Shown here piece by piece: positions 23,104-38,818 of a DNA stretch of 38,818 bases. The stretch is from a virus (Duplodnaviria > Heunggongvirae > Uroviricota > Caudoviricetes), in IMG/VR virus record IMGVR_UViG_2651869695_000012. One strand, given 5' to 3'. A program made the position numbers and the translations under genes. The notes beneath the pieces were generated by a model. The model saw only the letters and a program-made list of their open reading frames with translations. It was not told where the DNA came from and made no database searches. Every line of letters begins with the position of its first letter. Within the stretch, counting starts at the first letter, position 1.

Positions 23104-23550
23104 ATGAATAAAATGACTGTACTATTACTTAGCGCAACTATCATTTCAGGTTGTACTTCTTCCGTACCATTGATAAAGAAAACTCAATCAGGAAAACCTG
23201 AGGGGGTTTATCAAAATACGACAAAAGATAAAGTCAAAGATGCCCTTGTGAATTACTGCAATAGTAGAGGGTTGATAATTTACAACGCGGATAACAGCAG
23301 TGTTATATGTGGTAAAGAACTGGAAGGCGGCTCTGCTGTTTTTGGACAAATGTTAATCGGCAATGCCTATTCAACAACCCCGGTATCAAAAGTCAGATTT
23401 ACTATCGCTCAAGTTAATAACGATACAAAAGTGTGGGCCGATATGTGGATGGAAACTCAAATGGCAATGGGGCAAGTACAACAAATGTCTATAACAGACA
23501 ACGCAAGCAAAAACACTATCCAACAACGTCTTGATGAATTAAAACCTTAA
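23104..23550 (+). CDS. Lipoprotein moron, antisense to the late operon
   Basis: 148 aa; signal peptide with lipobox (IISGC); AT-rich island between Q and the methyltransferase; own RBS and start on the plus strand. Confidence 0.6.
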   Translation: MNKMTVLLLSATIISGCTSSVPLIKKTQSGKPEGVYQNTTKDKVKDALVNYCNSRGLIIYNADNSSVICGKELEGGSAVFGQMLIGNAYSTTPVSKVRFTIAQVNNDTKVWADMWMETQMAMGQVQQMSITDNASKNTIQQRLDELKP

Positions 23551-33436: not shown

Positions 33437-33563
33437 TTTCATTACTGCAAATGCCCCTGCGGGGGCATTTATGGAAACGTAATTGACTCAATAATCGCCG
33501 GATGGTGAGGGCTTCCTTTTACCAGAATTCAGCGTGGTGCAGCACATATACGCGGAGAACAAA

Positions 33564-34100
33564 ATGTCATTTATTAAAACTTTTTCCGGGAAGCATTTTT
33601 ATTATGACAGGATAAATAAAGACGACATCGTGATTAACGATATCGCGGTTTCCCTTTCAAATATCTGTCGCTTTGCCGGTCATCTTTCACACTTCTACAG
33701 TGTCGCCCAACATGCGGTGCTTTGCAGCCAGCTGGTGCCGCAGGAATTTGCTTTTGAAGCGTTAATGCATGATGCAACAGAAGCATATTGCCAGGACATC
33801 CCCGCGCCACTGAAACGCCTTCTTCCTGACTATAAACGGATGGAAGAAAAAATAGACGCCGTAATCCGTGAGAAATACGGGTTACCTCCTGTTATGAGCA
33901 CGCCAGTGAAATATGCCGATCTCATTATGCTGGCAACCGAACGCCGCGATCTCGGGCTTGATGATGGCTCTTTCTGGCCGGTACTGGAAGGCATCCCGGC
34001 AACAGAGATGTTCAAAGTGATTCCACTGTCACCAGGCCATGCCTACGGGGTGTTTATGGAACGTTTTAACGAGTTATCGGAGTTACGCAAATGCGCATGA
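33564..34100 (+). CDS. HD-domain phosphohydrolase (YfdR-like 5'-deoxynucleotidase)
   Basis: ATG 33564 with GGAG RBS; HD motifs (SVAQHAVLCS ... ALMHDATEAY); ~178 aa. Confidence 0.7.
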   Translation: MSFIKTFSGKHFYYDRINKDDIVINDIAVSLSNICRFAGHLSHFYSVAQHAVLCSQLVPQEFAFEALMHDATEAYCQDIPAPLKRLLPDYKRMEEKIDAVIREKYGLPPVMSTPVKYADLIMLATERRDLGLDDGSFWPVLEGIPATEMFKVIPLSPGHAYGVFMERFNELSELRKCA

Positions 34101-34453: not shown

Positions 34454-35097
34454 TGATCACGTTTACCGACAAAGAACTGATTAAAGAAATCAAAGAGCGC
34501 ATAGGAAGCCTGGATGTGAGAGACAATATTGAACGCCGTGCTTATGAAATCGCACTGGCATCGCTGGAAGAGGATCCGGTGGCATGGCTGCATTCAGACA
34601 ATGGATTAGGTATTCCGGCAATAACCAGGAGTAAAAAAATTGCTGACAGTTGGTTATCGAAGGGCTGGTATGTTCAGCCGCTATATATAGCTCAGCCAGT
34701 ACACGTGCCGGAGGAAATGAATCTGGCACGCGCACAGAAAGAGGTGGGTTTTAATCGATATATCAGGGCTGGGTATGTTGATGGCTGGAACGCCTGCCGC
34801 GCCACCATGCTTCATGGTGCCAAACCTGTAAGCCAGACTTACAAGTTGAACAAGCTGTCGGGCAACTCTCCGGTAACTCCGGATGGCTGGATAAGCTGTA
34901 GTGAGCGAATGCCGAACGATAAACAGTATGTTTGGTGTTGGGGTAAGTCTTACGGCTGGACTGAGTGCGATACCTTCGAAGGGTATTATGATTGTTCGAG
35001 AAACAAATGGTGGGCAGTTACTGACAATGGGGAAGAACCGGCATCGAAAGTAACCCACTGGATGCCGCTACCGGAACCGCCGCAGGAGGTGAAGTAA
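34453..35097 (+). CDS. DUF551-like phage protein (YfdT-like)
   Basis: 214 aa; C-terminal VTHWMPLPEPP; translationally coupled to the upstream gene (TAATG). Confidence 0.5.
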   Translation: MITFTDKELIKEIKERIGSLDVRDNIERRAYEIALASLEEDPVAWLHSDNGLGIPAITRSKKIADSWLSKGWYVQPLYIAQPVHVPEEMNLARAQKEVGFNRYIRAGYVDGWNACRATMLHGAKPVSQTYKLNKLSGNSPVTPDGWISCSERMPNDKQYVWCWGKSYGWTECDTFEGYYDCSRNKWWAVTDNGEEPASKVTHWMPLPEPPQEVK

Positions 35098-35291
35098 TGA
35101 ACAACTTAATGACAACTAAACAAGTCGCCGACTTCTGTGGCGTTTCAGTATCGACAGTTCTTCGCTGGAACAGCGTAAACCGGAGAACTGGCCAGAAGTA
35201 CAGGCCTGATTTTCCAGATCCTGATATTAAATCATGCCCAAATAAATGGGCTTCACGCAAGATTTACAGGTTTGCAGGAGTTATTGAATGA
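35097..35291 (+). CDS. Excisionase / AlpA-family HTH DNA-binding protein
   Basis: 64 aa; MTTKQVADFCGVSVSTVLRWN is the AlpA/Xis-type HTH; GGAGGTG RBS; lies between the accessory operon and the integrase-proximal locus. Confidence 0.7.
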   Translation: MNNLMTTKQVADFCGVSVSTVLRWNSVNRRTGQKYRPDFPDPDIKSCPNKWASRKIYRFAGVIE

Positions 35292-35635
35292 CGTATGTGA
35301 ACAGACACGTCTATGGCACGGTAAGCGTCTGTCTGAGCGATACAGGCACGGACGTTGCTATCCACAAGCATTAATTATCAGGAAACGGGGACCGCTCCCC
35401 AAGCATGATGTATTGAAACGAAGACATTTACACAATGATAGAAAAAATACTAAAATAATGATTCAACTCAAAGAGTTGATGTACATAAAATGCCTCACCA
35501 GCCTAGGTGAACATTTTCATGGGTGGGAAAAAACATGATGTGGACCACACTTCCCCCTCTAAAATGAGGGGAAAGAGTATGGTTTTGTTGTACACTAAAG
35601 GCCATATGGTTTTTTATTATGTTTGGATAAGATAA

Positions 35636-35821
35636 ATGAATGTAATAGCATTTAATGAAATAGAATCGAGCATCGCCGCCAATGATCAGGTTGATTCTAT
35701 CTGCATTGAATTAACAACATTTAATCAAGATAATGTCATTTCATTTGAAAGTAAAAAGAAAAATAAAGAAATTCTTGATGCATTTTTTGAAATAATAAAT
35801 ACTGATATAGTTTTCGACTAG
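35636..35821 (+). CDS. Small acidic ORF immediately upstream of the deaminase gene (may be part of a non-coding leader instead)
   Basis: 61 codons, ATG at 35636 with a weak GGATAAG context; very AT-rich; ends 10 nt before the deaminase start. Confidence 0.3.
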   Translation: MNVIAFNEIESSIAANDQVDSICIELTTFNQDNVISFESKKKNKEILDAFFEIINTDIVFD

Positions 35822-35831
35822 GTAATTAGCA

Positions 35832-37427
35832 ATGGCTGAAGCAGCAAAAAAAAACCCACAAAAGCTGAATGAAAAAAAAGGCTCAACATCGGCATCATCA
35901 CTTGATATTGTGAATTCACGACAATCAAAGGATATTTATCTTGGATTGTGTGGATATGTTGGATGTGGCATGAGAACGATAAACAAAATTATCGAAGAGA
36001 TATCCAAAGAATGGGGGTATAATGTTGTACACATCCGCATAAGTGCGCTTATGGAAAACCCATTATATTTTGAGCCAGCAGCACTGAAGGTATCCGAAAG
36101 CACACAAGTTAATAGACATTTAAAACTCCAGGATATTGCCAATAAACTTCGTAAACATTACAAAAAAAATGAGTTGCTTGCAGAAGCTGCTATTGCAGCA
36201 ATCGCAGCAGAGAAAAATAATATTGTTTATAATAATGATGAATATAAAGGTACTGTCTTCATCATTGATCAATTCAAAAGGCCGGAAGAAATAGAGTTAT
36301 TCAGAGTTATATATCAGCATAATTTCTATTTGTTAGGAGTTTTGCGCGATTTAGATTACCGAATTCAGAATCTCATTGATGACGAATCGACAAAGAACGA
36401 TCTTCATTTAATTATCAATATTGATAATAAATCCTCTGATCCGTATGGACAAAGAACCGGGGAAACCATTCTTGATTCAGATTTTTTTATTAAAAATAAC
36501 TTCAGCCAAAAAAGTGAATTAAAGAAGAAGATTGATCGGTTTTTCGGTCTTATTCATGGCAAAAATGGTTTAACACCAACTTTTAACGAGAAAGGTATGT
36601 ATGCTGCCTTTTCAACATCATTACAATCAGCTTGTTTATCACGTCAAGTAGGGGCTGCACTGTTTGATGATGAAGGGAATTTGCTTGCCGTGGGTAAGAA
36701 CGACGTACCTAAAGCTGGTGGCGGGTTGTATAGCAGTGATGATTTTGATAACGATCATCGATGCGTTCACAAAAGTGGTAAGTGTTATAATGATGCAAAC
36801 AAGCTAAAAATTAAAGACCGTATAAAAAGCATATTATCAACCGAAGTAAGAACTGTATTAGGTATTTCCGCAGGACAAACTGTTGCCGATATTAATATAA
36901 CACGACTTCTAAACAAATTAGATAATATTGCAGAAGGCATTTACAAAGACAGCAAAATATCAAGTGTAATGGAATACTCCAGATCAATTCATGCTGAAAT
37001 GGACGTCATTACATCAATGGCTAGAAAACAAAACGGCGATACTAAAGATAAAATTCTTTTTACGACAACCTATCCCTGCCACAACTGTGCAAGGCATATT
37101 GTCGCAGCTGGAATAAAAAAAGTAGTATATATAGAGCCATTTGATAAAAGCCTTGCTCTTGATCTGCATAATGATGCAATAACAAAGAACGAAGAATCTT
37201 CCAAAGTAATATTTTGTGATTTTGAGGGGGTATCACCCCGCCGCTACCATAAATTTTTCAGACCAACGGATGAACGTAAAGATGATAAAACAGGGGCTGC
37301 AAATAAATTTAATGCTCGCTACGAAAATCATATAGATGTTCAATATCTTGATGATTATAGAAAGTATGAGACTGTTGTAGCTAAGAAATTTATAAACGAG
37401 ATTGCTAAACCAGAGTCTCAGCCATAA
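35832..37427 (+). CDS. Two-domain P-loop-like NTPase + zinc dCMP/cytidine deaminase protein; candidate AvcD/DCD-type nucleotide-depletion anti-phage protein
   Basis: 531 aa; N-terminal Gly-rich loop LGLCGYVGCGMRT; C-terminal deaminase signature: CLSRQVGAALF, zinc ligands HAE (SIHAEMDV) and PCxxC (TYPCHNCARH); AT-rich; terminator hairpin directly downstream. Confidence 0.75.
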   Translation: MAEAAKKNPQKLNEKKGSTSASSLDIVNSRQSKDIYLGLCGYVGCGMRTINKIIEEISKEWGYNVVHIRISALMENPLYFEPAALKVSESTQVNRHLKLQDIANKLRKHYKKNELLAEAAIAAIAAEKNNIVYNNDEYKGTVFIIDQFKRPEEIELFRVIYQHNFYLLGVLRDLDYRIQNLIDDESTKNDLHLIINIDNKSSDPYGQRTGETILDSDFFIKNNFSQKSELKKKIDRFFGLIHGKNGLTPTFNEKGMYAAFSTSLQSACLSRQVGAALFDDEGNLLAVGKNDVPKAGGGLYSSDDFDNDHRCVHKSGKCYNDANKLKIKDRIKSILSTEVRTVLGISAGQTVADINITRLLNKLDNIAEGIYKDSKISSVMEYSRSIHAEMDVITSMARKQNGDTKDKILFTTTYPCHNCARHIVAAGIKKVVYIEPFDKSLALDLHNDAITKNEESSKVIFCDFEGVSPRRYHKFFRPTDERKDDKTGAANKFNARYENHIDVQYLDDYRKYETVVAKKFINEIAKPESQP

Positions 37428-37433
37428 CTGTTT

Positions 37434-37474
37434 CCACTCCTTATTTCTGTAAGGATAAGGAGTGGTGTTTTTAT
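37434..37474 (+). terminator. Intrinsic terminator after the deaminase gene, between the convergent deaminase and integrase genes
   Basis: 11-bp perfect stem CCACTCCTTAT / ATAAGGAGTGG (37434-37444 / 37455-37465) followed by TGTTTTT. Confidence 0.65.
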
Positions 37475-37579
37475 AAGTATAATGACCGTCTCTTCATAAA
37501 TCGGCAAATCGAAATATCAGCAACCAGTTAATTATAATCCAAGAATCATTACTATTTTCTTACTCTGTATGTCTATTCA

Positions 37580-38818
37580 TTATTCAATAGGCTGTCTGTT
37601 GGAACCTAAATTAGTGTAAGTAAGAATCGAATCAACCCTATCCCACCATGCCTGATAGGCTTTACGCTGTTCTTCTAGATAATCGCTCTTATCATAAACT
37701 TGCCATACCCCTGGCAGTTTATGACCGAGCATTATTTCAGCAATATGAGGCGCAGTAAGATCAGAAAAGTTTGTTCGTGCTGTTCGTCTCAAATCATGAA
37801 GAGACCAATGAGGAAATTGATACCCCAAACGCCGCCATGCGTACTGCATTAAATTGTAAGGCAGCGACTGCAATGATGTTCGACCAACTGGCTCCTTGCT
37901 TCCTTCCTTGGTAAAAAGCATATCGGAACCGTTGTTCATAGAGATAACGTATTTTATAAGCTCTTCAACCGGTTCAATAATGGGGCGCTTTAGCGGTTCG
38001 CCTGTTATATCACCTGTCTTATGTCGTTCTGGCGGTACAGTCCATACCTTATTAATGAAATCAAAATCATCCACCCTGGCAGTAATCAGCTCTGAACTAC
38101 GACAGCCGAAATGCAGCAATAGTTTAATGAAGGCCCGGTATTTGGGAACCATTCGAGAACCATCGATCGCAGCATAAAGAATTTTAATTTCATCGTGTGT
38201 CAGAAACCGTTTCTTCTGACCTTTACGGATATCCATATCTTTCCCCGTGATGTCCGACAGCGGGCGAGTTTCAATAAACTTTCTCTTATACGCCCAGACA
38301 TGGGCCTGCTTTGCGTTAATTAGCAATCGGTCTGCTATTGCTGGAGTCTTAGTGCTAAGAGGCTCCAGGACCTCTAACCAATCATGCAATGTAGCTGCAT
38401 CGTGAGGGATACTCCCGATTTTAGAGAACAGATGCAGTTCAAATGAGCGGAGTATCTGCTCAGAACCTTTTTTATTTTTTACACAATATGCTTCATACCA
38501 GGCACGGATCACAGACTCTACCGTCATGGCTTCAGTAGCTTTGCGTTTTTCTGCCTGCCTGACCAATCGTGGATTGCGGTTTGACTCAAGTTCACCACGA
38601 AGACGGATAACTTCTTCTCTGGCCTCTTTTAATCCAGTTGCCGGGTAAGTTCCGATATCAAGTCGCTCGCCTTTCCCTGCCCATTGATAACGATATTGGA
38701 ACACTACGCGACCTTTCGGTGATACTCTGACAGACAGACCATCACGATCTGATTTAACCAAAACCTTATCGCGTTCCTTTCCAACGACTGAACGCAACCA
38801 CGCATCAGACAGCGCCAT
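37580..38818 (-). CDS. int: Tyrosine recombinase / integrase (P4-type with N-terminal arm-binding domain)
   Basis: 412 aa; start ATG at the last three bases of the window; C-terminal catalytic motifs HDLRRT and LGHK...Y; N-terminal MALSDAWLRSV typical of P4-like integrases. Confidence 0.9.
   Translation of the reverse strand: MALSDAWLRSVVGKERDKVLVKSDRDGLSVRVSPKGRVVFQYRYQWAGKGERLDIGTYPATGLKEAREEVIRLRGELESNRNPRLVRQAEKRKATEAMTVESVIRAWYEAYCVKNKKGSEQILRSFELHLFSKIGSIPHDAATLHDWLEVLEPLSTKTPAIADRLLINAKQAHVWAYKRKFIETRPLSDITGKDMDIRKGQKKRFLTHDEIKILYAAIDGSRMVPKYRAFIKLLLHFGCRSSELITARVDDFDFINKVWTVPPERHKTGDITGEPLKRPIIEPVEELIKYVISMNNGSDMLFTKEGSKEPVGRTSLQSLPYNLMQYAWRRLGYQFPHWSLHDLRRTARTNFSDLTAPHIAEIMLGHKLPGVWQVYDKSDYLEEQRKAYQAWWDRVDSILTYTNLGSNRQPIE

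Follow-up and report, generated by a model that had tools for sequence, protein, structure and literature searches.

What inhibitor sits in front of avcD in an E. coli prophage: an RNA, a small protein or both? The locus that raises this question lies in IMG/VR record IMGVR_UViG_2651869695_000012, a stretch of 38,818 nucleotides (nt) that was analysed whole and is called the window here; cassette coordinates are positions in it. The avcD gene, an open reading frame (ORF) of 531 amino acids (aa) with an ATG start (35832..37427, + strand), is preceded by an ORF of 61 codons (186 nt; 35636..35821, + strand) with an acidic product of net charge -8. We are highly confident that these two genes form an AvcID (dCTP-deaminase, 'DCD') anti-phage cassette, which a lambdoid E. 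coli prophage carries as cargo between xis and int. Furthermore, sequence comparison leads us to propose, at what we judge to be even chances, that the AvcI ORF of ~55-65 codons encodes a micro-protein which is conserved family-wide and takes part in AvcD control, in which case AvcI would be a dual-function RNA or a protein antitoxin misclassified as type III. No statement of a conserved AvcI micro-protein was found in the literature that we searched.

The larger gene was assigned to the AvcD/DCD family because three profile libraries independently agreed. The NCBIfam equivalog NF041025 'anti-phage dCTP deaminase' scored 465.1 bits against a cutoff of 400, with residues 35-483 matching model positions 2-437 of 437; the PADLOC model dCTPase (PDLC02373) scored 547.8 bits (E = 1.1e-164); and Pfam PF00383 matched residues 252-434 (E = 6.9e-15). 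This agrees with the first-pass annotation, made from the sequence alone, which had placed the ORF in the AvcD/DCD family and had suggested a profile search and an alignment to V. cholerae AvcD as checks. Over its full length the protein was 61% identical to AvcD of enterotoxigenic E. coli (ETEC) H10407, and identities to the V. cholerae and V. parahaemolyticus proteins were 45% and 44%, respectively. The ORF and its HAE, PCHNC and SRQVGA motifs were all found as that annotation had described them. SRQVGA (residues 270-275, 36639-36656), the catalytic HAE (residues 387-389, 36990-36998) and the zinc-binding PCHNC (residues 415-419, 37074-37088) lie in a zinc-dependent CMP/dCMP deaminase domain (residues 252-434, 36585..37133), and the HAE/PCHNC active site is intact.

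An AlphaFold2 (AF2) model of AvcD, with a predicted local distance difference test score (pLDDT) of 83.9, showed an N-terminal domain resembling nucleoside monophosphate (NMP) kinases and a C-terminal dCMP deaminase; a search of the PDB by sequence returned no solved AvcD, and its top matches were single-domain dCMP deaminases. The kinase-like domain (~residues 30-245) carries a non-canonical P-loop, LGLCGYVGCGMRT (residues 37-49, 35940..35978), and a Walker-B-like IDQ (D146 Q147, 36264..36272). As the first-pass annotation had noted, the Gly-rich P-loop segment is devoid of the canonical lysine; this residue is missing throughout the AvcD family and not only in the window copy, and its absence is therefore no defect of this copy. 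Mutation of D162/Q163 abolishes AvcD activity in V. cholerae (bioRxiv 10.1101/2021.03.31.437871). These residues align with D146/Q147 of the window protein, of which Q147 is invariant and D146 almost invariant in the AvcD alignment. Among the other mutagenised essential residues, V. cholerae S52, E384 and C411/C414 correspond to T49, E389 and C416/C419, and G29/C30 of the E. coli AW1.7 protein correspond to G44/C45. All positions at which mutation abolishes the activity of the tested AvcD/DCD proteins thus have conserved counterparts in the window AvcD.

In the tested systems AvcI, first named DifV, is encoded directly 5′ of avcD and in the same orientation, is co-transcribed with it and overlaps a small 'hypothetical' ORF (bioRxiv 10.1101/2021.03.31.437871). 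A comparable ORF precedes avcD in the systems of V. parahaemolyticus, P. mirabilis and ETEC H10407, and in every case the region that holds it neutralises the AvcD of its own system; for ETEC and P. mirabilis the effect was specific, neither region inhibiting the AvcD of the other (bioRxiv 10.1101/2021.03.31.437871). We took the 61-codon ORF to be the AvcI locus of the cassette because its layout matches that of ETEC H10407 p58 (NC_017723.1; Hsueh et al.), in which an ORF of likewise 186 nt is followed after a short gap (12 nt, compared with 10 nt in the window) by a deaminase gene of 532 codons. The two small ORFs encode peptides of a single family, which takes in the ETEC ORF through the intermediates L006 and L104 (L numbers denote our avcD loci). 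The small proteins have diverged too far for pairwise BLAST, which was not significant (E = 0.79), so that their kinship is visible only through these intermediates, and at the DNA level only the 3′ third of the window ORF aligns with ETEC. Both cassettes are AT-rich and sit on mobile elements, the ETEC one on a mobilisable plasmid of 5.8 kb and ours in a prophage. By analogy with the ETEC and P. mirabilis pair, cross-inhibition between the window and ETEC systems would not be expected.

The first-pass annotation had seen, in the ~540 nt before avcD, only one marginal ORF of 61 codons. The ORF is present; 'marginal' did not hold, as its length, position and amino-acid sequence are conserved in many genomes, and the ORF list for this region also contains an 88-codon ORF with a TTG start (35272..35538) and a 42-codon ORF (35507..35635), both outside the stretch conserved among related cassettes. 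The suggestion of the same annotation that the upstream region may encode a regulator, an sRNA or the small acidic protein, fits the location of the 61-codon ORF at the AvcI position of the tested systems; the transcript of this ORF is the presumed AvcI antitoxin RNA. The small protein has 29 homologous clusters in Enterobacterales, mostly of exactly 61 aa and named, where named at all, 'hypothetical protein', with members in Klebsiella, Salmonella, Proteus, Yersinia, Serratia, Morganella, Cronobacter and others. It matched phrog_9966 end to end (1.9e-43; unknown function in PHROGs), while searches of Pfam, NCBIfam and PADLOC with this protein and four other AvcI-ORF products returned no family.

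Small ORF and deaminase gene share one architecture across the cassettes compared, with an ORF of 61-84 codons that ends 3-12 nt before avcD (61 codons and ~10 nt in the closest relatives). Such cassettes were found next to integrase genes (L101, L102), in tra regions (L103-L105), on an element with ParM/StbA (L111), in P4-like satellites (L109, L112) and on small plasmids. The small ORF and avcD travel as a unit across unrelated mobile elements, namely prophages, satellites and plasmids. A cassette of P. mirabilis, L107, has a layout (61 aa, 10 nt, 531 aa) identical to that of the window, with an AvcD of 88% and a small protein of 79% identity (P0135), in a different genomic context. For about one sixth of the avcD homologues, chiefly those of beta-proteobacteria and others that are distant, no recognisable small ORF of the conserved types lies upstream (L016, L039, L041, L057-L059, L067, L071, L074, L078, L079, L082 and L083); in L041 and L058 a same-strand gene of ~600 aa ends 60-65 nt before avcD. 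Homologues of this kind may be regulated differently.

A family-wide test of the small ORF was made on 80 diverse avcD loci (L005-L084), taking the longest ORF at most 330 nt upstream of avcD. Its median length was 60 codons on the + strand, compared with 37.5 on the - strand and 36.5 in shuffled sequences, and ORFs of at least 50 codons were found at 84% of the loci on the + strand versus 24% on the - strand (Wilcoxon p = 3e-10). A peptide ending in A-x3-[IVL]-L-x2-A-x-K-L-x-W-stop (the W type) was encoded at 39 of 68 loci, and ~10 further loci kept its helix but ended differently (...LPGK; Xanthomonadales-like loci). The AvcI loci of V. cholerae (L085 2253-2423) and V. parahaemolyticus (L087 2248-2424) are ORFs of the W type, their products ending in ATRALLEQAKQLGW and ATQSLIDQASKLGW, respectively, directly before the stop. 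In the clade of the window, the peptide ends in K-E-x-L-[DE]-A-F-x-E-I-x-N-T-[DE]-I-I-F-D-stop. When the ORFs were anchored at their stop codons, the entropies at codon positions 1/2/3 were 0.68/0.48/1.87 and 0.48/0.17/1.99 bits for the two conserved Ala codons, and in the conserved Leu and Ile/Val codons the middle base alone was fixed.

Substitution patterns pointed the same way. The ratio of nonsynonymous to synonymous rates (dN/dS) of the small ORF in the window clade was below 1 in all 32 defined pairs (range 0.05-0.9), for example 0.05 for L102-L103, 0.14 for window-L103, 0.17 for window-L102 and 0.26 for window-L005, and the pairwise differences summed to 825/767/1240 at codon positions 1/2/3. 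As a frame control, the annotated frame had a median dN/dS of 0.29 and 0 stops, compared with 1.12 and 0.82 and with 40 and 65 stops in the two shifted frames. Pairs of the W type ranged from 0.11 to 0.42, and V. cholerae versus V. parahaemolyticus gave 0.39. These patterns indicate that the AvcI ORF is under purifying selection at the amino-acid level family-wide, the Vibrio AvcI loci included. The two peptide types share one architecture, with an M-V-I-x-F strand, a linker, an N/K-V-I-x-F strand, a basic (K/R-rich) patch and a terminal amphipathic helix, and hhalign aligned them in register (P = 0.002), but with a probability of only 14%; homology between the Enterobacterales-type and the Vibrio-type small proteins is only suggestive. 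Their charges are opposite, -5 to -8 in the acidic window clade (...IIFD) versus a mean of +4.5 in the W type (Vibrio/Pseudomonas, ...A.KL.W).

Signals at the RNA level were also searched for in the AvcI region. Single-sequence folding of either strand was no better than that of shuffled sequence; the region with its flanks gave z = +0.74 and the ORF alone z = -0.8, which argues against an RNA inhibitor in the window clade, and the ORF-only z of the W type averaged -0.56 (p = 0.02). RNAalifold reported one short hairpin only. This candidate hairpin lies inside the small ORF (35660..35700, + strand) and has an 8-base-pair (bp) stem, ATAGAATC / GATTCTAT (arms 35660-35667 and 35693-35700), and a 25-nt loop. 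Its pairing held in 91% of cells among ten sequences, compared with 78.5% in shuffles (0/500) and 32-44% in slid controls, and compensatory changes occurred in 4 of the 8 pairs, the main swaps coming from one sub-clade and thus representing few independent events. An Rfam search of 34500-38818 (E ≤ 1) found no known RNA family over the AvcI region, its sole match being a chance microRNA-like one inside the integrase gene. An antisense-RNA reading was dropped, since the literature puts AvcI on the avcD strand and the - strand had no ORF or structure signal.

How should these observations be reconciled with published work on AvcI? An RNA role is experimentally supported in Vibrio. In V. cholerae, start-to-stop constructs and constructs devoid of a ribosome-binding site (RBS), expressed from Ptac, still neutralise AvcD (bioRxiv 10.1101/2021.03.31.437871), and an in vitro complex between AvcI RNA and AvcD has been reported. 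Together with an AlphaFold model of the 61-aa protein alone that was too poor for a fold search (pLDDT 47), these two results weigh against a protein inhibitor. They support the published view of AvcI as a purely non-coding RNA, under which the ORF would be translated incidentally, or for coupling to or stabilisation of avcD, and the peptide would be functionless; the label is kept in a 2025 review, the candidate hairpin suits it, and the overlap of the small-ORF stop codon with the Shine-Dalgarno (SD) sequence of avcD fits a coupling role. The view meets its difficulty in the pattern of selection. Neither RNA constraint nor a leader ORF serving coupling only would conserve an amino-acid sequence, yet most closer pairs have an in-frame dN/dS of 0.05-0.4 with positions 1-2 fixed and the third free, shifted frames are near 1 with many stops, and the long ORF is confined largely to the + strand across the 80 loci. 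Selection at the amino-acid level therefore cannot stem from an RNA function or from simple coupling of translation, and we consider a purely non-coding AvcI rather unlikely.

At the other extreme, the inhibitor could be the 61-aa acidic protein itself, a conventional (type II-like) antitoxin of which the transcript is merely the mRNA. Besides the in-frame purifying selection, a strict length of 61 codons in most clade members, the existing grouping as a protein family in phrog_9966, an SD-like GGA/AGGA 8-12 nt before the small-ORF ATG in most clade members and the weakness of the RNA-structure signal speak for it. Several published observations bear on it: ETEC and P. mirabilis AvcI were tested as whole ORF regions, with RNA and peptide unseparated, the published comparison covered four small ORFs only and saw no similarity among them, and in V. 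cholerae the activity of the ~174-nt ORF is lost when 18 nt are trimmed from its 5′ end or 4 nt from its 3′ end (all bioRxiv 10.1101/2021.03.31.437871), and the minimal functional AvcI (~171-174 nt) coincides with the ORF. The Vibrio constructs and the in vitro complex count against a protein acting by itself, as do the fall of AvcI RNA on infection in step with AvcD activation and the compensatory changes in the hairpin inside the ORF; we regard this explanation as unlikely. In our reading, which seems to us the most economical one, the avcI transcript would be translated and the acidic 61-aa protein would help to control AvcD, either together with the RNA or in its place.

Conserved elements around the two genes suggest how they may be expressed. 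A block, TTTTGTTGTACACTAAAG (35583..35600, + strand), contains a -10-like TACACT (35591-35596) and is a candidate promoter ~40 nt before the small ORF; its core, TTTTGTAGTAnAnT (window 35583-35597), is common to six cassettes whose DNA further upstream is unrelated. The promoter scan instead predicted 35427-35456, which was set aside as lying outside the block conserved among cassettes. An inverted repeat, CCCCTC-TAAAAT-GAGGGG, at 35545-35575 just upstream of the -10-like block is kept in the window, L005 and L101 (CCCTTC...AAGGGG) and might serve as an operator or end a transcript that comes from further upstream. The 10-nt gap between small ORF and avcD contains no terminator and is compatible with co-transcription. 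At this junction, GAC-TAG-G...ATG (35816..35834, + strand), the small-ORF stop overlaps the AGG core of the SD sequence 10 nt before the avcD start. GAY-TAG-G is invariant in 13 of 13 distinct clade sequences (window, L002, L005, L006, L101-L104, L106, L107, L109, L111 and L112), in which the AGG core at the stop lies 7-12 nt before the avcD ATG, and we infer that avcD is probably translationally coupled to the small ORF. Downstream, the terminator scan found an intrinsic terminator (37434..37475, + strand) with a 13-bp stem (37434-37465), a 6-nt loop and a T-run, between avcD and int (37580..38818, - strand), consistent with the strong terminator convergent with the integrase described in the first-pass annotation.

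The family assignment leaves the function of the deaminase to be weighed. A metabolic dCMP deaminase that feeds dTTP synthesis during prophage replication, like T4 Cd, would have the same zinc-deaminase fold and HxE/PCxxC site; the deaminase domain is indeed structurally closest to dCMP deaminases, phage ones included (S-TIM5 4p9c, T4 Cd 1vq2 and PBCV-1 bi-DCD 7fh4), and a 5′-deoxynucleotidase (YfdR) is encoded nearby in the prophage. Those enzymes and ComEB are, however, single-domain proteins of 140-190 aa under allosteric control by dCTP/dTTP, whereas the window protein of 531 aa has an extra kinase-like domain and an upstream inhibitor gene, which is typical of AvcID. It passes the anti-phage equivalog but not ComEB (TIGR02571, 40.1 bits against a cutoff of 219.45), which also sets aside a housekeeping deaminase of the ComEB/Dcd type; it sits in a cargo slot on the lysogeny side with its own terminator, and its close homologues cause filamentation, depletion of deoxycytidine (dC) nucleotides and phage protection. 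We therefore regard a metabolic role as very improbable. An APOBEC-like mutator, which would edit cytosines of phage DNA or RNA instead of depleting free nucleotides, appears equally far-fetched. It would account for weak Pfam matches to polynucleotide deaminases (MafB19 at 31 bits, above its cutoff; SNAD4, APOBEC2 and NAD1 below theirs), but the best structural matches are mononucleotide deaminases, and the E. coli AW1.7 homologue depleted dCTP without DNA or RNA editing (Tal et al., bioRxiv 10.1101/2021.04.26.441389).

AvcD deaminates dCTP and dCMP, and both of its domains are needed (bioRxiv 10.1101/2021.03.31.437871; bioRxiv 10.1101/2021.04.26.441389); when transcription is shut off, AvcI decays and AvcD becomes active (PMC10511110). 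Deamination of dCTP and dCMP, dC depletion on infection and phage protection are known only from the ETEC, V. parahaemolyticus, V. cholerae and AW1.7 systems. By analogy, the window cassette would probably be made as one transcript from the -10-like element near 35591 to the terminator at 37434-37475. AvcD would be produced constitutively and kept inactive by a labile product of the upstream avcI. An infecting lytic phage that stops host transcription would let the inhibitor decay, and the freed AvcD would convert dCTP and dCMP to dUTP and dUMP; with the collapse of the dC pool, phage DNA replication may stall or particles may be defective. The prophage would thereby shield its host and itself from superinfection. 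Three points count against this picture: the activity, phage protection and regulation ascribed to the window allele come by homology from the tested systems (ETEC H10407, P. mirabilis, V. cholerae, V. parahaemolyticus and E. coli AW1.7); L107, the 88%-identical P. mirabilis relative, may not carry the allele of the tested strain AR379 (Hsueh et al.); and the candidate promoter, proposed on the basis of conservation, was not called by a simple promoter scan.

Comparison with the more distant systems places the window cassette further. The Vibrio AvcID systems (V. cholerae VSP-1 and V. parahaemolyticus, DcdV-DifV) share its domain architecture and essential residues, and their inhibitor gene likewise lies directly 5′ on the same strand and overlaps an ORF, of 56-58 codons, under protein-level selection; unlike the window, they have a basic small protein and a gap of 77 nt. 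The DCD of E. coli AW1.7/U09 (Tal et al. 2022) resembles the window system in that both profile models match the window protein and the zinc cysteines are conserved. It differs in its length of 576 aa and in having been described as a single-gene system with its native promoter region, the upstream small gene not being considered (bioRxiv 10.1101/2021.04.26.441389). With type III systems of the ToxIN kind, the cassette would share a labile upstream inhibitor co-transcribed with a protein toxin, and activation by phage-induced transcription shut-off. Membership of that class was rejected: the window antitoxin region is a conserved protein-coding ORF with no tandem repeats in 35200-35900, and the toxin is a deaminase and no endoribonuclease. 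The only repeat in that interval was an imperfect direct repeat of 17 nt in two copies, TAAYARCATTTAATSAA (35643-35659 and 35712-35728, 82% identical, 69 nt apart), which match two I-x-F-N segments of the peptide (IAFNE/TTFNQ) and could be fortuitous or stem from a duplication within the ORF.

The window is a lambdoid prophage, encoding tail assembly protein I, antiterminator Q, a CI-like S24 repressor, CII and Rha/Ash. Its avcI-avcD cassette fills an AT-rich cargo (moron) slot (35292..37579) between the excisionase gene (64 codons, 35097..35291, phrog_1553 match) and the integrase gene; the G+C content is 0.351 in the slot and 0.519 in the remainder of the window. Similarity to lambdoid phages breaks off at ~35293, directly after xis, and picks up again in int, and in phage 2H10 the slot is occupied by an unrelated gene of 239 aa. 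Both the AT-rich slot beside the integrase and the prophage-carried gene of the first-pass annotation are thus borne out. In 41 complete E. coli genomes the whole stretch of 2.7 kb recurs with ~99% identity; it lies there in the same prophage setting beside yjjG-rimI-holD, and RefSeq (PGAP) labels the gene 'anti-phage dCTP deaminase'. One IMG/VR contig encodes an AvcD of identical amino-acid sequence, and ~5,600 homologues were found at E ≤ 1e-20. avcD is a known and already annotated member of a defence family, and its setting as prophage cargo is ordinary.

Insertion sequences (IS1 or IS421) interrupt or flank avcI-avcD in several E. coli genomes from cattle and pigs. In L004 (E. coli OkiPb01701), the annotated start of avcD lies further downstream, and the match lacks its 3′ end beside an IS421 copy. 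Such cassettes illustrate how the system decays or is inactivated. Elsewhere in the prophage, a second AT-rich pocket (G+C ~0.39) beside the antiterminator Q gene holds an ORF of 148 aa (23104-23550, + strand), which matched phrog_3152 end to end (function unassigned there) and had no Pfam or PADLOC match; it is possibly another moron. A YfdR/YfbR-like 5′-deoxynucleotidase is predicted at 33534-34100 (+ strand), ~1.7 kb upstream of avcD, from a weak Pfam match and the RefSeq annotation of the equivalent prophage of E. coli 1303, and would be the second enzyme of the prophage, besides AvcD, predicted to act on deoxynucleotides.

The avcD gene call itself adds nothing new, being one more prophage gene for immunity by nucleotide depletion in an xis-int moron slot; the residual interest is in its partner gene, avcI. 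In the literature AvcID counts as a type III (RNA-antitoxin) system, and its sensing of infection is modelled on the decay of an RNA. If the small protein of 61 aa (56-58 aa in Vibrio) is made and functional, sensing could depend on protein turnover or translation shut-off besides transcription shut-off, the cognate specificity between AvcI and AvcD could be a matter of protein-protein contact, and defence-system finders should model AvcID as a two-gene system.

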